In this document: positions 8,147 to 59,368 of the stretch, piece after piece
Numbering within the stretch: the stretch's first letter is position 1
How the letters are laid out: each line of letters begins with the position of its first letter
Origin: Eubacteriales bacterium
GTDB taxonomy: Bacteria; Bacillota; Clostridia; Oscillospirales; QAKW01
Direction: 5' to 3'
Length of the DNA: 59,446 nucleotides
Assembly (NCBI GenBank): GCA_045538295.1
Contig: JAZSRD010000058.1
Location: forward strand, 1 to 59,446
Made by a program: the position numbers and the translations under genes
The notes under the pieces: model-generated
Database searches by the model: none
What the model was told of the DNA's origin: nothing
Seen by the model: only the letters and a program-made list of their open reading frames with translations

Positions 8147-8238
8147 CCCGTGTTTGCTTATAAACATCCTAATCCCCTATATGCAAACAGAGAGTATACT
8201 TCCCCGGTATACTCTCTGTTTGTGTTAGGGACAAAAAA

Positions 8239-8450
8239 GACACAGAACGCAGAAAAAAGGTGTCCTGTTGTGACTGATGCCAATAATTATAGTTTGAACC
8301 AAGAGGACGGTTTCTACTCTTTCTCCTTGGTTTTAATTAAGGAAAAACTCGGCAAAGCCGAGTTTTTATTTAAATTTTCTGCTTTCCGTCGAAATGACCT
8401 CTCGGCGTATCACATACGCCTTCGGATCATTTCAACGAAATCTGCATTCT
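8239..8450 (+). repeat. family-1 four-hairpin composite repeat, single unit
   Basis: H1 8239-8265 (loop CGCAGAAAA), H2 8297-8332, H3 8344-8366 (AAAACTCGGC-AAA-GCCGAGTTTT), H4 8379-8447 (apex GGCGTAT-CAC-ATACGCC). Collinear with the units at 13648 and 28024-28481. Confidence 0.75.
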
Positions 8451-8513
8451 TTTTTGACCCTAACAAGGATCTAATCAGCAAAAGACGCAGAACGCAGAAA
8501 AACATATAATAAA

Positions 8514-8529
8514 TGTTTCACGTGAAACA
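8514..8529. promoter_or_regulatory. parS: parS centromere site (perfect 16-bp palindrome TGTTTCACGTGAAACA)
   Basis: Matches the Firmicutes parS consensus TGTTNCACGTGAAACA exactly. Confidence 0.85.
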
Positions 8530-8552: not shown

Positions 8553-8568
8553 TGTTTCACGTGAAACA
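8553..8568. promoter_or_regulatory. parS: parS centromere site, second copy (TGTTTCACGTGAAACA)
   Basis: Identical 16-mer, starting 39 nt downstream of the first site's start, immediately upstream of parA. Confidence 0.85.
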
Positions 8569-11510: not shown

Positions 11511-13040
11511 ATGAAAAGAATCTTTTCTCTGTTGCTTTGCCTGGCGCTACTGTTCAGCATTACCGCCTGCAAGCCGGATAATATTACGCCGCCCGTAGAG
11601 ATCATCGATCCCTCGGCCGAGGAAGAAGAAACCAAAAAGCCCGAAAAGACCGAGCCGGAAGAAGAGGAAGAGCAGGAAGAAACCCCGCCGGAAAAAGAAG
11701 AAGAGCCAGAAAAAGAGGAAGACCCGAAGCCTGCGCCCGAGGAAGCCGAGGAGGAGCAGGAGGAGCAAGAAGAGCCCTCTGCCGAAAAGGAAACAACGGC
11801 ACCCACCGAAAATCCCTTGGCGGTAAAGGACTTTACCCCCTCCGACACCGTCAATTCCACCCTCTCCGCAAGCGGTTTAGTTAAAGAAGGCACGGCGGTT
11901 TCCCCTTTGAAAAACCGCACCATTGTGGTGTATACCGCCGATGATCTGCCCGCCTTTTCCTATACCGATGCCAAGGGCAACCCGGTAACAGAATGGCAAT
12001 GGATGAAAGCCTTGGCAGAAGAAAACGGCTTTATGCTGAAGCACAGCATCAAAAACGATGCTGTTGCCGTAAAATCCCAGCGGATCGCCCTATTTGCAGG
12101 CAAAAAATTAAGCCTGATCCAAGCCAAGGCCTCCGACCTGGCAAATGCCCTAACCCTGTGCCGCTCCGCCCTGGATTATCTGAACACCGATGCCAAGTCC
12201 TTTGGCATTAGCAAAGCGGTACTCACCCAAAGCAACCATGCGCTGTTTGCCCCGGTGGGAAATGTGAACTCGTTGTGGTACGACCCCGCCCTTTTGCCGG
12301 AAAACGCCGACCCCGCCGCCCTGGCAGAAGAAAACGCCTGGACTGTGGAAGAATTTACCAATATATGCAACAGCGTTGCCACAAATAAAGAGATCCTGCC
12401 CCTGCTGATGAAAGAAACCCTGGCATGGGCAACCCTGGGCGGGCGCAGTCCTCTTACCTTACTGCAAGGGAAGCTGGATGCCAATATCAACGCCGGCGTT
12501 ACCCGAAACGTATGGTCGGTATATAAAGAAAAGAATCTGGCCGCTTTCTCTGAAATTCCGGAGGAGGGGGACTATTCCTTAAAGAACGGCAACACCGCTT
12601 TCCACTATACCAATAAGCCGGAGCCTGCCGAAGAAAGCACCTTGAAATATGCGCCCCTGCCCGCCTTGGAAAAGGGAACTGCCGGCACCGTTACCTTTAC
12701 CGGCACCTTCTTTGGCTTGCCTAAATATGAGGAAAGTGAAGAATCTGCCCTTGCCGCCCTCACCTTTGCAGAGCTTTGGTGCAACCGCTACACCGAAACC
12801 CGTGCCGCCGCCCTGCAAGCCCTGGGGCTCACCGAAAAGAACTATCTGAATTATTGCAATATGGCAGAGGAACAGGGCGTTTTGATCCTCCACAACGCCG
12901 CCATCGAAGAAACGGTAGCCACCTACCTCAAGGGGCTCTCCGACGATGCAGTCAATATGGACGAAGCCTATGCCAATGTGAAGCCTCGGGTAGACGGCTT
13001 GATCGCCGCCCGCAACATCTATTATGAATTAACCGCATAA
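11511..13040 (+). CDS. lipoprotein with Glu-rich linker, solute-binding-protein-like (function unknown)
   Basis: Lipobox LFSITAC. About 70-aa E/K/P low-complexity tract, then a globular ~400-aa domain. Confidence 0.5.
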
Positions 13041-13093: not shown

Positions 13094-13630
13094 ATGGAAC
13101 TAAAAGGAAGCAAGACCGAAGCAAATTTAATGGCAGCCTTTGCCGGGGAATCCCAGGCAAGAAATAAGTATACCTATTTTGCCGCCAAGGCAAAAGAAGA
13201 TGGCTATCAGCAGATCGGTGCTTTTTTTGAAGAAACCGCCCACAACGAAAAGGAGCACGCCGAGATCTGGTATAACCTGCTCTCCGGCGGCCCCGCCGCC
13301 ACCGCACCCAATTTGGAAGACGCCGCCAAGGGCGAAAACTACGAATGGAGCGAAATGTACCCCGCCTTTGCCAAAGAGGCAAGGGAAGAGGGCTTCAACG
13401 AGATCGCCTACCTTTTCGAGGCCGTTGCCGCCATCGAAAAGGAGCACGAAGAGCGGTTTATGAAGCTGAAAGCCAATTTAGAGGATCAGCTGGTGTTTCA
13501 ACGGGGAGAAAGCGTGGTTTGGGTCTGCCGTAATTGTGGGCATCTCCATGTGGGCACTTCTGCGCCCCAGCGATGCCCGGTTTGCAAGAAGCCTCAAGAC
13601 TACTTTATGCTCAAAAACGAAAACTACTAA
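13094..13630 (+). CDS. rbr: rubrerythrin
   Basis: [45 protein letters not shown] and C-terminal rubredoxin CRNCGH...CPVC. Start at the ATG at 13094, behind AAAGGAG. Confidence 0.9.
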
Positions 13631-13647
13631 GGCGAACAAAATAAAAA

Positions 13648-14262
13648 GGCACAGACCGCAGAAAAGGGAAGAAATATATAGGTTTGTGCCAATGTTTTAA
13701 GATAGAACAAGAGGAAAGAGTTTCTGCTCTTTCTTCTTGTTCTTTTTTATTTATAAGGAAAAATCCCGGCAGTGCCGGGATTTCATTTGATTTTTCTGCT
13801 TTCCGTTGAAATGACCGCTCGGCGTATCACATACGCCTTCGGGATCCTTTCAACGAAATCTGCACTCTTTTTCTTCTGTTCGCCAAACAGGCACAGACCG
13901 CAGAAAAAGGGAAGAAATATATAGGTTTGTGACAATGTTTTAAGATAGAACAAGAGGAAAGAGTTTCTGCTCTTTCTTCTTGTTCTTTTTATTTATAAGG
14001 AAAAATCCCGGCACTGCCGGGATTTCATTTGATTTTTCTGCTTTCCGTTGAAATGACCGCTCGGCGTATCACATACGCCTTCGGGATCCTTTCAACGAAA
14101 TCTGTGCTCTTTTTCTTCCGTTCGCCGGTTACTGCATAACGGCAGAAAAAAAGAGTGGCTTGTACCATCTTTTAAAGAAAAGCAAGGGAGAAGAGTTTCT
14201 ACTCTTTCTCCCTTGTTTTTTATTTTGTTTTTTGCAGTCTGTGCTTTTTTCTTCCACAAGCC
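13648..14262 (+). repeat. family-1 composite repeat, tandem array (two full 242-nt units plus one internally deleted unit)
   Basis: Units start at 13648 and 13890 and are near identical. In unit 1: H1 13648-13690, H2 13708-13739, H3 13761-13783, H4 13796-13865. The third unit (14127-14262) keeps H1', H2' and the tail of H4. Confidence 0.85.
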
Positions 14263-14422
14263 GACGGCGTATGTCGATACACCGAGGGGAAGCGGAGACG
14301 AAAGGTTCCCGTTTTTCTCATCTCTATTGAGGCGGATCAAAAATGGGGAGATTTTGTTTCCGCAAGCCGACGGCGTATGTCGATACGCCGAGGGGAAGCG
14401 GGGACAAAAGGTTCCCGTTTTT
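14255..14422 (-). repeat. two tandem ~106-nt mini-units built on the H4-apex palindrome, opposite orientation
   Basis: CAAGCCGACGGCGTATGTCGATAC(A/G)CCGAGGGGAAGCGG(A/G)GAC(G/A)AAAGGTTCCCGTTTTT at 14256-14316 and 14361-14422. The reverse complement resembles CTCGGCGTATCACATACGCC of H4. Confidence 0.65.
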
Positions 14423-14432
14423 CATTCGCCTA

Positions 14433-19406: not shown

Positions 19407-19446
19407 GGGGCTGTAAAAAATCGCAAGATTTTTTACAGCCCCTTTT
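19407..19446 (+). terminator. rho-independent terminator (CTGTAAAAAATC hairpin family)
   Basis: GGGGCTGTAAAAAATC-GCAA-GATTTTTTACAGCCCC followed by TTTT. Confidence 0.8.
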
Positions 19447-21932: not shown

Positions 21933-22137
21933 AATGATATATTTTGCTGCCGCAAAATATGAAATAATTATCAATGATCATTATGATATATTTGGATTGC
22001 ATCCAAATATGATATAGAATAAATCCCATACGCCTTGGCGTATTTCATATTGTGAAACAATATTTCATATCCCCGGGATATTTCATAAATTCCGTAAGGG
22101 ATTTATTTCATTGCGTGATGATCACAGAGCATCACGC
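21933..22137 (+). repeat. family-2 hairpin array (eight different short hairpins with TTTCAT/GATAT spacers)
   Basis: Hairpins at 21939-21960, 21964-21984, 21988-22010, 22028-22043, 22047-22063, 22067-22081, 22087-22104 and 22113-22137. The last overlaps the rsmG stop codon. Confidence 0.75.
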
Positions 22138-26367: not shown

Positions 26368-27867
26368 TTATGAAAGATAATATACCTTGGCGGTTTGATC
26401 GCCAAACACAGTTCGGATCTTTTCCCGGGCGTTTTCGTCGAAATCCAGGTTTTCCGGCTCGGCGATCTCGTTGCCGCCGATCTGTCCGATCTTACCGCCC
26501 AGGTGCTGAATAAAGGTGTTGCCGTCCATAGCGGGGCAATATTCATCCTTCAGTGCCACCAAATGAAGCATACGATAGGCACAGCGGTCAAAAATATTGT
26601 TGCAGATGGAATAGTTGTGGGCGGTGTTGATATAACTCCAACCCTTAATAAGGGCGGGGGTATGGTAGTTGTGCCGTTGCTGACCCCAGCCGTAGCCGCC
26701 CAGGCGGATAAAGTTCCCGCTCATTACCACATCGTCCATGTAGCTTTCCTGCTCACCGTCCAGCTGATCCAGGAAATATTCAATGCCGTAAACACATTTT
26801 TCGATCAGATTATCGGTGTAGCGAATGCCGGTCATGGTGCGCTTAACAGTGGTACTCACCTGATGGGTGATGGCGGCATCGTATACCTCATAAATGTAGT
26901 TATTATGCGCCACATAATTTTCGCAACCGCCGTACACCTCAATGGCGTTACCAAAGCGGGTCACCGTGCCTCGGGTGCCTTGGGGATAGTTGGGATCGGT
27001 GCCCATATAATGCTGAATGGTACCGCCGATCCAGCCCATCTCGCAGTTGGTAACGGTAAGCCCAACCGAGTGCCCGCCGGCGGCTACACCGTGCATCCCC
27101 ACGTATTTAATACACACATTGTCGATGGTCACATTGGGGTTTTGCCCCACCTTGAACATATGGGTTCGTGCCACCGATTCGATCTCCTCAAAAACCTCCC
27201 CGGGATTGCCCCGGTCACACCGTAGGTAAAGGGTACCGTGACTGCGCTCCCAAAAAAAGGGAATGGGGAAATCCTCTCCCTTGGAGGGCAGGCGGGTCAG
27301 GTAACTGTCGTCGTGGCAAAAAAGATCCAGATCCCGGGTCATTTCCTTTTCGATGATAAAGGGTCTGCTTTCATCCTCCCGGCAAACAAACTGTAAATTT
27401 TTATAGGTGGGGATCAGCTTGCGGGAATGGAATTCTCCACCGTTGAAGACCAAGGTGCCGGAATCCAGCAATTTTTTGGTGCATTTCCAAATGTTATGCT
27501 CTTTATTGTAAAGCTCCCAAAGGGCAGGATCTGCAAGGGAGCATTCGCTGCCGTAAAATTTGGGCTTTTCCCCCTCACCGTAGGCACCGTAGGAAACACC
27601 GGGCTTGGTCATTACCGTGCCGCGAAAAAGATCGCCCCGGTTAAACAGCACTCCATCCCCGGGGTTCAGGTAGGCGGCAGATACCCGGTTTAGGCTCTTC
27701 CAGGCAGTGGCAGGGCTTTTACCATCGGCAGTATCGTTGCCGCTGCTGCTCACATAATAGGTAACCCCGCTGATCTTTAATTCATCCTTGGTGTGCAGGA
27801 TCTCCTGCTTGCGCTGTTCAAAAAGCAGATCATATTGCTGCTGCAATTCCTTGGTAGCCTCTTTCAT
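26368..27867 (-). CDS. right-handed parallel beta-helix repeat protein (pectate-lyase-fold, function unknown)
   Basis: 499 aa from the ATG at 27867 (GGAGG 8 nt upstream). YYVSSSGNDTADGKSPATAWKSL, typical of beta-helix N-caps, then repeated G/N/H-rich turns. No signal peptide. Confidence 0.55.
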   Translation of the reverse strand: MKEATKELQQQYDLLFEQRKQEILHTKDELKISGVTYYVSSSGNDTADGKSPATAWKSLNRVSAAYLNPGDGVLFNRGDLFRGTVMTKPGVSYGAYGEGEKPKFYGSECSLADPALWELYNKEHNIWKCTKKLLDSGTLVFNGGEFHSRKLIPTYKNLQFVCREDESRPFIIEKEMTRDLDLFCHDDSYLTRLPSKGEDFPIPFFWERSHGTLYLRCDRGNPGEVFEEIESVARTHMFKVGQNPNVTIDNVCIKYVGMHGVAAGGHSVGLTVTNCEMGWIGGTIQHYMGTDPNYPQGTRGTVTRFGNAIEVYGGCENYVAHNNYIYEVYDAAITHQVSTTVKRTMTGIRYTDNLIEKCVYGIEYFLDQLDGEQESYMDDVVMSGNFIRLGGYGWGQQRHNYHTPALIKGWSYINTAHNYSICNNIFDRCAYRMLHLVALKDEYCPAMDGNTFIQHLGGKIGQIGGNEIAEPENLDFDENAREKIRTVFGDQTAKVYYLS

Positions 27868-28023
27868 GGCAAAGTGCCTCCATTGGTCATTTTTTTGCAT
27901 TATAACACACCATGCTGTTATATTCAACGCCTGCAGATAAAAAGAAAAGAAACAAAGGAAAGAACACAAATTCTTTCCTTTGTTTCTTAAATTTTGGCTT
28001 AATTTAATGATATATTTTGCTGG

Positions 28024-28481
28024 GGTGTGCAGATTTCGTCAAAACGATCCGAAGCTGTATGTGATACTGCGAGAGGTCGTTTTGGCGGAAAGCAGAAAAA
28101 TTTATATAAAAACTTGGCTCTGCCGAGTTTTTTCCTTAAGGCTAAAACAAAAGGAAAGAGCACAAACTCTTTCCCTTGTTTTATCTTTTAATATTGGCAC
28201 AGCCCATCATTAAATCTTATTTTCTGCGGTCTGTGCCTTTTTAATATCTGGAAAGACAACCGAAAAAGAGTGCAGATTTCGTCAAAACGATCCGAAGCTG
28301 TATGTGATACTGCGAGAGGTCGTTTTGGCGGAAAGCAGAAAAATTTAAATGAAAACTTGGCTCTGCCAAGTTTTTTCCTTAAATAAGAAGAACAAAGGGA
28401 AAGAGCAGTGACTCTTTCCCTTTATTAACCTTATACATTGGCACAGACCGGTATATTTTTTATTTTTCTGCGGTCGGTGCC
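28024..28481 (-). repeat. family-1 composite repeat, two tandem units (period ~244)
   Basis: Units at 28268-28481 and 28024-28237. The reverse complement is collinear with the 13648 unit (H1 GGCACCGACCGCAGAAAA..., H2, H3 AAAACTTGGC-AGA-GCCAAGTTTT, H4 apex GCAGTAT-CAC-ATACAGC). An extra H2-like hairpin sits at about 27946-27988. Confidence 0.85.
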
Positions 28482-28499
28482 TTTTTCGCTTGTCTTAAA

Positions 28500-42910: not shown

Positions 42911-43000
42911 AATGAAATAAATCCCTTGCAGGATTTATGAAATACGCCAAGGCGTATGAGGGATCTATTTTATTTCATATTTTGCATTTTGCAAAATATA
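42911..43000 (-). repeat. family-2 hairpin array, short inverted copy
   Basis: The reverse complement aligns with 21933-22112. It shares ATATTTTGC-N-GCAAAATAT, ATACGCC-TTG-GCGTAT and AAATCC...GGGATTT hairpins and TTTCAT spacers, but lacks about five internal hairpin modules. Confidence 0.7.
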
Positions 43001-43002
43001 TC

Positions 43003-43040
43003 ATTTTAAAAAACAAGGGAAAGAGTATCTGCTCTTTCCC
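43003..43040. terminator. bidirectional terminator (H2-type purine-rich hairpin)
   Basis: CAAGGGAAAGAG-TATCTG-CTCTTTCCCTT with T runs on both strands, between convergent SLH and symporter genes. Confidence 0.75.
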
Positions 43041-43047
43041 TTTATTT

Positions 43048-44445
43048 TTATTGTGCCTTTTTAGATTGTACCTTTTTTGGCAGTTTTTCTCCGGTAAATA
43101 CTTGGTTTGCAAGACCGATCAATCCGATCAGGTTGGGAATTGCCATCAGGGCGCAAAAAATATCGGCAATGGTCCACACTGCATCTGCAGAAAGAAAGCT
43201 CCCTAAAAACAGCACCACCAAAAAAGCCGCCCGAAACCAAGTTACACAGCTTCCGTGGCAGGGGAGCAGGTACCTTAAACTTTGCTCCCCATAAAAGCTC
43301 CATCCAATAATAGAGGCAAAGCCAAAGAAAAACAGGCAGATCATATATAAAAAGGAAAGTAGTTCCTTTGGCAGGGGCAGCTGCTCCAGGGCATAAAGGG
43401 TAATACCGGCACCGTTCAGTTCCGGTGCCTGCCAGGCTCCGGTTACCACCACCGCATAGCCGGTGAGGGTGCACATGATCACCGTATCCAAAAAGGGACC
43501 CAACATGGAGATCATTCCCTGTCGAGCCGGGCTGTTGGTACGGGCGGCAGCAGCGGCAATGGGGTCGGAGCCCATGCCCGCTTCGTTGGAAAAGATCCCC
43601 CGCCCCAAGCCGTAACGCATGGCCTTTTGAAAGGTGATCCCCGCCGCCGCTCCCAAGGCGGCTTTGGGGGCAAAGGCACTGTGCAGGATCAATGCAGTGG
43701 CACCGGGCAGTTTATGATAATTGATTGCCAATAGCCATAGGGTCAGCAGGGTATAAAGGGCTGCCATAAAGGGCACCAATAAGGTGGAAACGGAGGCGAT
43801 CCGTTCAATACCCCCTGCCAGCACCAACCCCACCAGCAGGGTGGTAAGCCCGCCGGCGATCAGCGCCGGCCAGGAGATGGAAAGACTGCCCACCGAAAAA
43901 GCGATATTGCCTCCGTTGGGGGTAAAAAAATCCTCCGCCGCCATCACCATGCCGTTGATCTGGGAGGTGGTGCCCATGCTGATCAGGCAGGTAATCACGC
44001 AGGCGGCGGCAAAAACTCTGGCTAAAAAGGGCTTTTGTAACCCCAGCTCTAAATAAAGAAAGGGCCCTCCTAAAAATTTGCCGTCCTTGCCACGGCGGCG
44101 GTACTTTACCGCCAAAAAGCCTTCTGCATATTTTGTTGCCATGCCGAAAAAGGCTGCCAACTGCATCCAAAATAATGCCCCCGGCCCTCCGGCGGTTATG
44201 GCGGTGGCAACGCCGATAATGTTGCCGGTGCCCAAGGTGGCGGCAAGGGAGGTGCAAAGGGCGCCGAATCCGGAAACATTGCCCTGAGCGCCGGGCTCCT
44301 TTTTCAGTGCCGCCTGAAAGGCACGGTGTAACCCCCGCACCGAAAGCCAGCGGGTGCCCACGGTCAGGTAAATGCCGGTGCCTAAGATCAGCGCCAGCAT
44401 CCATGGTCCCCATAAAAGGGAGGCTATTTTCTCTAATAATTCCAT
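43048..44445 (-). CDS. alanine/glycine:cation symporter (AGCS family)
   Basis: 465 aa, multi-TM. GNIIGVATAITAGGPGALFWM, SNEAGMGS motifs of sodium:alanine symporters. Confidence 0.88.
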   Translation of the reverse strand: MELLEKIASLLWGPWMLALILGTGIYLTVGTRWLSVRGLHRAFQAALKKEPGAQGNVSGFGALCTSLAATLGTGNIIGVATAITAGGPGALFWMQLAAFFGMATKYAEGFLAVKYRRRGKDGKFLGGPFLYLELGLQKPFLARVFAAACVITCLISMGTTSQINGMVMAAEDFFTPNGGNIAFSVGSLSISWPALIAGGLTTLLVGLVLAGGIERIASVSTLLVPFMAALYTLLTLWLLAINYHKLPGATALILHSAFAPKAALGAAAGITFQKAMRYGLGRGIFSNEAGMGSDPIAAAAARTNSPARQGMISMLGPFLDTVIMCTLTGYAVVVTGAWQAPELNGAGITLYALEQLPLPKELLSFLYMICLFFFGFASIIGWSFYGEQSLRYLLPCHGSCVTWFRAAFLVVLFLGSFLSADAVWTIADIFCALMAIPNLIGLIGLANQVFTGEKLPKKVQSKKAQ

Positions 44446-44474: not shown

Positions 44475-44510
44475 GGGCTGTAAAAAATCCGGAGAATTTT
44501 TTACAACCCT
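44475..44510 (-). terminator. rho-independent terminator (CTGTAAAAAATC hairpin family)
   Basis: The minus strand reads AGGGTTGTAAAAAATT-CTCC-GGATTTTTTACAGCCCT followed by TTTTTT. Confidence 0.75.
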
Positions 44511-44517
44511 TTTCTAT

Positions 44518-48444: not shown

Positions 48445-48912
48445 ATGAGTTATTGCAAAAACTGCGGTAAACAATTAATAGAAGGGGCAGTGGCCTGCAC
48501 CGTTTGCGGGTGCCCTGTTGGCGTGGGTGCCAACCATTGTGATGCCTGCGGCGAAAAATTGGTGCCCGGCTCTGCCTATTGTGTTCACTGCGGCCATGCG
48601 GTGGTTCCCTCGGTAATGGTGCAGTCCAAACCGCCCCGTTCCTGCTCTCGCTATGCGGCAGCCATCTTCGGCATCGTGATGGGTGCCTTTGGTGTGCATA
48701 GCTTCTACCTGGGCAACGTGGGCAAAGGTCTGGGTCAGATCGCCGTTGCCCTTGCCGCCTACTGCCTGGTGATGCTCAACGTGCTTCCCGGCTTTGCCGG
48801 TGCCCTTCTTGCCGGGCTTTGGGGCTTTATTGAGGGCGTGCTGATTTTGGTGGGGGATATTAAAACCGACGAAGAGGGCAATCCCTTACGCCAATGGGGG
48901 GACGATGCATAA
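48445..48912 (+). CDS. zinc-ribbon plus TM2 domain protein
   Basis: Three CxxC pairs (CKNCG, CTVCG, CDACG, CVHCG), then a TM2-like GAFGVHSFYLGNVGKGLGQI. Confidence 0.7.
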   Translation: MSYCKNCGKQLIEGAVACTVCGCPVGVGANHCDACGEKLVPGSAYCVHCGHAVVPSVMVQSKPPRSCSRYAAAIFGIVMGAFGVHSFYLGNVGKGLGQIAVALAAYCLVMLNVLPGFAGALLAGLWGFIEGVLILVGDIKTDEEGNPLRQWGDDA

Positions 48913-48923
48913 AAATGGCACAT

Positions 48924-48987
48924 TTTCCGCCGATTCCAACGCTCGGCGTATCACATACGCCTTCGGATCTTTTGAACAAGATCTGTA
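48924..48987 (+). repeat. solo fragment of the family-1 H4 hairpin
   Basis: TTTCCGCCGATTCCAACGCTCGGCGTATCACATACGCCTTCGGATCTTTTGAACAAGATCTGTA. The apex is identical to the 8404-8420 copy. Confidence 0.6.
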
Positions 48988-49016
48988 TCCATTTTGACAC
49001 ATCTCTAAGAAAACCA

Positions 49017-50113: not shown

Positions 50114-50145
50114 GGCGGTAAAAAATCTTAAGATTTTTTACAGCC
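50114..50145. terminator. bidirectional terminator (CTGTAAAAAATC hairpin family)
   Basis: GGCGGTAAAAAATC-TTAA-GATTTTTTACAGCC between convergent genes. Confidence 0.7.
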
Positions 50146-50152
50146 CCGTTAA

Positions 50153-59093: not shown

Positions 59094-59209
59094 GGTTTCT
59101 TTCTCCTTATTAAATTTTTAAAACCCGCTCTGCTCCGCACCCTCTTTTTGCCCTTGCCTTTTCTGCCCAAAAGCAAAAGCAAAAAGGTCCATACCTCGTG
59201 GCGGCGGAA

Positions 59210-59330
59210 CATGCTCTTCGGCACCCAGTATTCCGACTTACGGCAACGGCGCATGGTTCTGCCTTTGCCGATCACGGCGACGGGATCGCCGGGGACTTTC
59301 ACCCCAATTTCCTGTATTCCGAAGTGGCTT
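59210..59330 (-). promoter_or_regulatory. cobalamin riboswitch (compact form)
   Basis: The minus strand reads CTTCGGAATACAGGAAATTGGGGTGAAAGTCCCCGGCGATCCCGTCGCCGTGATCGG...CCGTAAGTCGGAATACTGGGTGCCGAAG. GGTGAAAGTCC and CCCGxCGCCGTGA cores, a B12-box-like AAGTCGGAATACTGGGTGCC, and closing stem CTTCGG/CCGAAG. Confidence 0.65.
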
Positions 59331-59339
59331 CTACCTTAT

Positions 59340-59368
59340 AGCATAGCAGATCTCTCCCAAAATTGCAA
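59340..59368 (-). promoter_or_regulatory. possible promoter of the riboswitch operon (TTGCAA-17-TATGCT)
   Basis: The minus strand reads TTGCAATTTTGGGAGAGATCTGCTATGCT, immediately 5' of the aptamer. Confidence 0.4.

Follow-up and report, generated by a model that had tools for sequence, protein, structure and literature searches.

In staphylococci, IS1272 of the IS1182 family and its composite TnSha1 insert into terminator hairpins that share no sequence consensus, and do so in both orientations (PMC4923244; PMC5678879). IS1272 removes part of the target hairpin and leaves no duplication (PMC4923244; PMC5678879). A hypothetical 'pathway b' has also been drawn, in which each extruded stem-loop is joined at its 5' foot and would be duplicated whole (PMC5678879). 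The BOX, RUP and SPRITE repeats of pneumococci are small, non-coding, AT-rich, highly base-paired and modular, and are enriched downstream of genes; some are terminator-like and may be co-opted as terminators (PMC3049150). Here we analyse a palindromic repeat found in a 59,446-nucleotide contig of a Eubacteriales bacterium (JAZSRD010000058.1, assembly GCA_045538295.1), the whole of which we refer to as the window. A first-pass annotation had described a unit of about 242 nt with four hairpins (H1 to H4), repeated in tandem, and had taken it for a selected RNA structure. We find that the units are better explained as copies of a non-autonomous, non-coding mobile DNA element, palindromic and similar to transposable elements of the miniature inverted-repeat type (MITEs), which targets intrinsic terminators and carries terminators of its own. 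We give this explanation a probability of roughly 78%; the unit is probably not a dedicated structured RNA gene.

Results

A dispersed family in uncultured Clostridia

We searched a single genome for each species, using a pattern that fixed the invariant sequences on either side of H4 and left its interior free. The scan returned 64 loci, of which 4 are chance matches in unrelated phyla and about 60 lie in metagenome-assembled genomes (MAGs) named Clostridia or Eubacteriales bacterium, recovered from samples such as goat rectum and roe deer colon. The first-pass annotation had proposed a search of relatives as a check on its structure; the copies found lie in at least 12 MAGs. The loci are spread unevenly, with 19 in assembly JAFSCX (RGIG3028), 11 in JAZMZQ, 7 in JAFTZM (RGIG4291), 5, 5, 4, 3 and 2 in the following assemblies and one each in another four. 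Many matches lie less than 100 nt from a contig end, as expected of a repeat that breaks assemblies. The FtsK protein of the window is 84% identical to that of RGIG4291 and no more than 51% identical to proteins beyond a set of some 40 relatives, which places the window in the element-bearing clade. The family is confined to this clade of uncultured gut and rumen Clostridia. Thirteen full copies at unrelated loci in JAFSCX share a mean identity of 92% (88-98%), compared with 76% (69-93%) for the five full units of the window.

Insertion at terminator palindromes

Nearly every young copy starts 2-8 nt past a perfect, copy-specific hairpin that is preceded by an A run and followed by a T run, in other words an ordinary intrinsic terminator of the neighbouring gene. 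The same hairpin recurs immediately past the right end of the element. In a systematic check, 22 of the 56 full copies were flanked by such a direct duplication of the whole terminator palindrome, 18-38 bp long and at fixed offsets: the upstream copy stops some 4 nt short of profile position 1, and the downstream copy follows immediately on ...GACACGCTG. At L001 (L numbers denote loci outside the window) AAAATGCGGGAGAAAAATAAATTTTCTCCCGCATTTT stands on both sides of the element, and at L065, in RGIG4291, the copy between a GH39 gene and rubrerythrin is flanked by the 31-nt palindrome AACGGCACCTyCTGAAAAGAAGGTGCCGTTG, with one C/T difference between the two. Duplication length tracks palindrome length and the palindromes are unrelated in sequence, which argues that the target is recognised by its shape. 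At the level of sequence these copies establish that insertion takes place at intrinsic-terminator palindromes of any sequence and that the whole palindrome is duplicated in young copies.

The two hairpins of a duplicated pair can differ in telling ways. In L027 and L038 the loop is inverted (TGAT vs ATCA; TTTA vs TAAA), and in L015 and L041 the stems differ by paired changes. These differences look like template switching within a palindrome, a process that could yield 'compensatory' changes in the absence of selection.

Several gene spacers are occupied in some genomes and empty in others. The spacer between YjbQ and TAL holds a full unit in L068 and a plain terminator in L067. Downstream of ftsK the site is filled in the window, L065, L067, L072, L073 and L074, and is a plain terminator in L068 and L075; the filled states comprise an H4-only unit (L067, L074), an H4-only unit with an apex insertion (L073), a truncated unit (L072) and a degenerate one (L065). 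The site downstream of rny is a plain terminator in the window and L067 and carries a partial unit in L068. Judged on such features, the family would class as a MITE, as it is small, non-coding and dispersed in many copies, with terminal inverted repeats and target-site duplications, and it targets hairpins without sequence specificity, a trait of IS1182/IS1272-like elements. The first-pass annotation had held that a clear match to a known insertion sequence or MITE would count against its RNA; the likeness found is one of kind and not of sequence.

Ends and modules of the element

Units range from 220 to 300 bp, a full unit measuring about 240 bp without and about 295 bp with the terminal hairpin H5. 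A terminal inverted repeat, CAGNNTGTCAAAAAA, is present at both ends in the form CAGNNTGTCAAAAAA(GG) ... (CC)TTTTTTGACANNCTG, and inside it lies an almost invariant 24-nt motif, GGCACAGACCGCAGAAAA, which is inverted at the two ends and whose right copy is split by H4. Once reverse-complemented, the right end CAGCGTGTCAAAAAACTCC matches the left end CAGACTGTCAAAAAAGG. Young copies start with (C)AGACTGTCAAAAAAGGCACAGACCGCAGAAAA, and the four-hairpin unit finishes in ...CGAAATCTGCACTCTTTTTTGAGAGTCT, the inverted repeat of that start. Beyond this right end most young copies carry H5, a fifth and perfect hairpin (CCCAGCGTGTCAAAAACCTCC-GCA-GGAGTTTTTTGACACGCTG); the true ends are CAGACTGTCAAAAAA and, as its reverse complement, CAGCGTGTCAAAAAA. 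In a non-redundant alignment of 36 sequences, conservation is highest not in the hairpins but at AAAAAGGCACAGACCGCAGAAAA on the left (columns 23-45) and at the mirrored halves TTTTCTGCTTTCCG before H4 and CGAAATCTGCACTCTTTTT after it, which suggests sequence-specific recognition of both ends. There is also an invariant inner inverted repeat, GCAGAAAA...TTTTCTGC, absent from the first-pass annotation. H2 has a T run on one strand and H3 has T runs on both, the better of them on the minus strand. Copies differ by insertions and deletions whose lengths are not divisible by three, and no reading frame survives among them, in agreement with the earlier statement that no open reading frame (ORF) is conserved.

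The modules are present in various combinations. There are H4-only forms, and both L054 and one unit of the window lack H3 and H4. At L070 340-500 (-) the inner repeat forms an empty hairpin, GCAGAAAAAA-TAT-TTTTTTCTGC, with no H1-H3 block, suggesting that this block was itself inserted into, or deleted from, a palindrome. A separate observation concerns L073 8334-8552, where the H4-only unit that follows ftsK has an insertion of about 110 nt in the H4 apex, another landing inside an element hairpin. A palindromic terminator, GGCTGTAAAAAATC...GATTTTTTACAGCC, occurs three times in the window (19409-19445, 44476-44512 and 50114-50150; 76-89% identical), and similar GGCTGTAAAAA hairpins flank elements in L006 and L030. 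Its arm resembles the terminal repeat of the element (GACTGTCAAAAAAG), and these hairpins may be minimal relics of a terminal-repeat pair, like H5. We also considered a sigma-70 promoter for a minus-strand H4 RNA, as TTGACA occurs in the terminal repeat, and rejected it, there being no usable -10 box at 16-18 nt.

Covariation, strand bias and the case for an RNA

Double changes that preserve pairing in H2, H3 and H4 between window loci, as first reported, are visible in the alignment of the five units. They hold up in the wider family, for which we used 36 non-redundant copies from many genomes, with 500 shuffles and slid controls. RNAalifold returned an end-to-end closing stem, the invariant inner repeat as a 9-bp helix, H3 and the base of H4. 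In this structure 86.7% of cells are paired, compared with 76.9% after shuffling and 41-50% in the slid controls, and 188 cells carry double changes vs 65 in the shuffles; none of the 500 shuffles reached any of these measures. Changes on both sides were seen in 5 of 7 pairs of H3, 7 of 9 of the H4 base and 7 of 12 of the outer stem, with H3 paired in 95.5% of cells and the terminal stem in 90-97%. H1 (GGCACAGACC/GGTTTGTGCC) behaved differently: 67.9% of its cells are paired across the family vs 66.3% when shuffled, with 3 double-change cells vs 3.6. We do not retain it as a conserved helix, as it is present in window copies but shows no covariation, and its 5' arm is part of the terminal inverted repeat. 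Covariation across the family supports H3, the base of H4 and the closing stem and does not support H1; the closing stem and inner repeat are to be added to the four-hairpin description.

These results raise the question of whether the unit is a structured non-coding RNA or 3'-untranslated-region element, co-transcribed with the upstream gene, whose four hairpins are under selection as an RNA fold that serves stability, processing or regulation. Besides the strong covariation in H3, the H4 base and the closing stem, a single unit folds far better than expected, with z-scores of about -7.3 and -7.6 on the two strands; the energies, at -89.1 and -86.2 kcal/mol, are however nearly equal, so that both strands fold equally well overall. 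The hairpins themselves differ by strand when both strands of the 36 representatives are folded. H2 is more stable on the plus strand in 28 of 36 (G-U pairs 55 vs 30), H3 shows no bias, and H4 favours the minus strand in 33 of 36, with means of -32.2 vs -22.8 kcal/mol and, in plus-strand letters, 86 A:C vs 3 G:T among the non-Watson-Crick cells of its stem. The earlier claim that G-U pairing in H1 and H2 favours the sense strand of the upstream gene thus holds for H2; H3 is neutral, and H4 leans the opposite way. These counts are inflated by shared descent, with perhaps half a dozen independent positions, and are suggestive. The opposed biases do contradict an RNA made from the sense strand alone. 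A two-fold symmetric DNA element would fit them, and so, equally well, would a two-way terminator cassette in which plus transcripts stop at H2/H3 and minus transcripts pass H4 and stop at H3.

Orientation tells a similar story. The five full units of the window all point the same way as the upstream gene, as do most copies elsewhere and as a co-transcribed RNA would, yet among tandem-gene contexts at least 9 copies are anti-oriented against 19 co-oriented, and a further 15 lie between convergent and 5 apparently between divergent genes (crude ORF calls). Co-orientation is favoured and not required. Orthologous copies do keep their stems better than their linkers, as an RNA would: in the pair L012/L047 identity is 96% in paired columns, 84% in unpaired element columns and 50% in the flanks. 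This contrast indicates that old copies are under constraint, most simply as terminators of the genes they follow. A sense transcript would in any case meet two terminator-like hairpins before reaching H4. Rfam has no match in the region at either gathering or permissive thresholds, the best permissive scores being at most 28 bits vs cut-offs of 34-180, which agrees with the earlier failure to assign a named RNA family. Templated correction within quasi-palindromes can also produce compensatory changes with no selection at work, and the loop inversions of L027 and L038 show such events here. The terminal inverted repeats, whole-terminator duplications and near-identical copies at unrelated loci point instead to DNA mobility. 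Taken together, an RNA fold is an unlikely main explanation; the compensated hairpins that led to the proposal of a selected RNA are real, and an RNA role may be secondary.

Strand asymmetry would also suit the single-stranded intermediate of a system like REP/BIME or REPIN, in which inverted motif pairs fold into hairpins and a single-strand transposase of the RAYT type (IS200/IS605-like) disseminates them. In the work of Bertels and Rainey from 2011 and in the BIME literature, such sequences are reportedly mosaic palindromic units at gene 3' ends, with inverted motif pairs, arrays and compensated hairpins, and our family shares the invariant 24-nt motif in inverted pairs, the mosaic of modules at gene 3' ends, the tandem arrays and the hairpins maintained by compensation. 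The strand bias is however mirrored (H2 on the plus strand, H4 on the minus) and not confined to one strand, and 22 copies have 18-38 bp duplications, whereas to our knowledge REP and REPIN insertions make none. We know of no RAYT in the element-bearing genomes, and no RAYT-like gene was seen, though RAYT was not searched for systematically. We consider an origin of this kind very unlikely.

Copies in the window

The window is core chromosome near the replication origin, with ParB-family and ParA-family genes, jag, gidA, gidB, rny and ftsK. Its 59 kb hold five full units and four partial or short-form units. The H4 apex pattern occurs 6 times vs 0 expected, and the H1-loop motif CnGAnCGCAGAAAA 11 times vs 0.33 expected, with an opposite-strand match too inside every unit. 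The main array lies between rubrerythrin and ftsK. The tandem pair at 13648 and 13890, described from the outset as nearly identical, was recovered by Tandem Repeats Finder (TRF) at 13643-14126 (period 242 x 2.0 copies, 96% matches, score 912). Unit A (13631-13884, plus strand; nhmmer profile match 13641-13874, E 4.6e-56) follows directly on the rubrerythrin stop codon at 13628-13630. Its outer arms are GGCGAACA (13631-13638) and TGTTCGCC (13877-13884). The left subterminal motif AAAAAGGCACAGACCGCAGAAAA (13643-13665, plus), near-invariant in all copies, holds the 5' arm of H1 and the inner repeat GCAGAAAA (13658-13665). H2 (13704-13743, plus) is an 18-bp purine-rich hairpin followed by TTTTTTATTT and is terminator-like on the plus strand only, while H3 (13761-13783) is a GC-rich hairpin with an A run on one side and a T run on the other, resembles a bidirectional terminator and has in its stem the most variable part of the unit. 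The right end (13792-13872, minus strand) comprises the inner repeat TTTTCTGC (13792-13799), H4 (about 13800-13858) and TCTGCACTCTTTTT, the inverted left terminal motif.

Unit B (13885-14126, plus; nhmmer 13882-14117), with H2 at 13947-13986 and H3 at 14003-14025, is a tandem duplicate of A with 96% identity; two 1-nt indels separate A from B, so no reading frame is kept. In a terminator scan H2 and H3 of both units matched the intrinsic-terminator pattern. Unit C (14127-14257, plus), the third unit noted before as lacking H3 and most of H4, gave a partial profile match at 14139-14218. It has a diverged left motif, H2 at 14181-14217, a terminal-repeat remnant TTTTTTGCAGTCTG at 14228-14241 and an internal deletion that removes H3 and H4, and a similar deletion variant occurs at L054 6780-6900. 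Beyond it, directly after the ftsK stop codon and co-oriented with ftsK, stand two tandem, diverged H4-only units on the minus strand (14229-14432). These were detected as a repeat of period 106 at 14246-14423, which aligns with the post-ftsK units of relatives (L067, L074) and has in common with them a GAAAAAnGG start, the apex GGCGTATCGACATACGCC and an ...ATTTTTG end. The first-pass annotation had counted this repeat as another family. As it belongs to the present one, the entire spacer of about 800 bp between rubrerythrin and ftsK (13631-14432) consists of family members in both orientations. Among relatives with FtsK homologues the gene order around this spacer is not conserved, and no orthologue of the array was recovered from them.

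The further occurrences at 8239-8450 (plus) and twice at 28024-28481 (minus) were likewise recovered by the profile search, at 8229-8458 and within 28025-28495. Unit D (8222-8467, plus), with outer arms TGTTAGGGAC/GACCCTAACA, lies downstream of a ParB-family gene (Pfam), with a host hairpin ahead of it at 8187-8218 and a solitary left-motif fragment after it at 8479-8504. Unit E (28244-28495, minus; profile match 28495-28255), with outer arms AAGACAAGCG/CGGTTGTCTT, directly follows the stop codon of a jag/khpB-like gene (Pfam). Unit F (28025-28243, minus; profile match 28243-28025), with a truncated 3' end, is in tandem with it (TRF 28027-28486, period 243 x 1.9 copies, 86%). An H4-only short form (48913-48999, plus; profile match 48924-48996), made up of terminal motif, H4 and terminal motif, directly follows the stop codon of the gene at 48445-48912.

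Units A and E and the unit at 48913 all start right after stop codons, and unit D follows the host hairpin; from this position, H2 and H3 of the old window copies most likely now terminate the upstream genes. The array at 13643-14126 would have arisen when old copies, probably domesticated ones, expanded locally. Simple duplication of ordinary terminators in place, involving neither a family nor mobility, would account for the 96% identity of its two units and for terminator-like H2 and H3, but is refuted by the family scan and the window profile search, which place the 240-nt architecture at three window loci and in at least 12 other genomes with its ends conserved, and we give it next to no weight.

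Other features of the window

Two perfect parS sites (TGTTTCACGTGAAACA) lie at 8514-8529 and 8553-8568, in the spacer between the ParB-family and ParA-family genes just downstream of unit D, the first of them within a terminator-like hairpin. A small repeat, comprising GCAAAATATATCAT and then an H2-like purine-rich terminator hairpin, is found at 42986-43055 (plus) and 28016-27950 (minus), 75% identical over about 95 nt; the second copy directly follows unit F. Two long ORFs without a Pfam match adjoin element arrays, at 11511-13040 (plus, 509 aa) and 26368-27969 (minus, 533 aa). A full-length match to the Gut-1 RNA (RF01706; 61.5 bits) at 22037-22113 (minus) adjoins gidB, and a cobalamin riboswitch aptamer (RF00174) scores 35.1 bits against a gathering score of 31.5 at 59203-59353 (minus).

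Discussion

We propose that the units described here spread as mobile DNA. A transposase supplied in trans would bind the invariant terminal motifs and would read its target by shape, as an extruded hairpin or cruciform, and not by sequence. The element ends may then be joined at the foot of the hairpin on each strand, and gap repair would duplicate the hairpin, a route of 'whole stem-loop duplication' that has been put forward as possible for IS1272, of the IS1182 family. Insertion would be nearly harmless, since a host terminator remains on either side and the element contributes terminators of its own. Units may later grow into local tandem arrays by unequal recombination or slippage, their hairpins staying paired through selection for termination, templated correction within palindromes, or both.

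Several observations weigh against this proposal. No window copy has a target duplication or H5, so for the window itself we infer mobility by homology; its copies appear to be old ones from which both have been lost. The outer arms of window copies (A, D and E) differ from copy to copy yet stay complementary, which is unexpected for a transposase-binding repeat and suggests either selection on the folded strand or arms that derive from the target palindrome. It is possible that they are terminal repeats that have drifted while staying paired, or that they are both arms of a target hairpin whose centre received the element; at the ftsK site the arm ATAACCGCC overlaps the stop codon in L067, which favours the target-hairpin origin. 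The elements also lie co-oriented with the upstream gene in the majority of tandem-gene contexts, by the same crude ORF calls. A strain-level pair of empty and filled sites with identical flanks was not obtained, and an exact-protein look-up of two window proteins for other strains returned no record. Finally, about 600 kb of related loci, drawn from fragmented MAGs, yielded neither a transposase nor an autonomous element with matching ends. An exact scan of all loci for the terminal repeat, with all-against-all clustering of ORFs for repeated genes, revealed no autonomous partner. A scan of JGI metagenomes with the invariant motif gave 3 matches (a short variant, a degenerate copy and one by chance), all non-coding or chance and with no transposase; viral contigs gave 0 matches, and BLAST against plasmids and phages gave chance-level matches only. 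With these searches negative, we infer the mobilising enzyme and its membership of the IS1182 family.

A more far-reaching account can be outlined, which we offer tentatively and consider rather doubtful as a whole. Transposition would be guided by structure, with terminators read as extruded hairpins and duplicated whole by an enzyme not yet linked to such behaviour, and the element would have grown as new palindromes inserted into loops of older ones. Such nesting may have taken place at the host terminator, the terminal-repeat pair, the GCAGAAAA/TTTTCTGC pair and H4. Old copies would have been domesticated as two-way terminator cassettes, their halves selected on opposite strands (H2 on the plus strand, H4 plus H3 on the minus).

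That a striking, covarying, RNA-like repeat can be explained as mobile DNA is a caution for RNA-motif discovery in MAGs. The family offers about two dozen natural whole-terminator duplications on insertion, an outcome so far only hypothesised for hairpin-targeting insertion sequences in the literature that we found, and these may help to test how transposases read DNA shape over sequence. The elements break assemblies in this clade of uncultured Clostridia and may replace host terminators beside core genes such as rubrerythrin, ftsK, jag and parB.

Comparison with known systems

Among the systems considered, REP, BIME and REPIN sequences differ in that the units here are much longer and have target duplications and T-run terminators. 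Class C group II introns of bacteria insert at sites just past the stem-loop of an intrinsic terminator, by structure and not by sequence. The structure-recognised site beside a terminator stem-loop is shared, whereas our element is 240 bp long, has no intron domains, and has inverted repeats, target duplications and both orientations. An intron remnant was ruled out by its size and by the H4 apex, whose 3-nt loop with no AGC or bulge is unlike domain V.

Closest in general character are BOX, RUP and SPRITE and MITEs at large, such as Correia and ERIC, with which the family shares small size, lack of coding capacity, AT-richness, dense base pairing, a frequent place downstream of genes, paired terminal repeats, modules that are missing or repeated, and a terminator-like nature. 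There is no sequence relation to these repeats, and the duplication here is of a whole palindrome and variable in length, where theirs is short and fixed; the nesting of palindrome in palindrome and the internal bidirectional terminator also set the family apart.

In behaviour, the nearest known system is IS1272 of the IS1182 family. Both use terminator or inverted-repeat hairpins as targets, in both orientations and often just downstream of genes, and both have terminal inverted repeats able to form a stem-loop, with end sequences that can be duplicated in tandem. The element described here lacks a transposase gene, nor does it resemble plasmid or phage records in sequence, and where IS1272 partially deletes or replaces the hairpin, young copies here duplicate it whole. 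In this they look exactly like the outcome of 'pathway b' in the IS1272 model.

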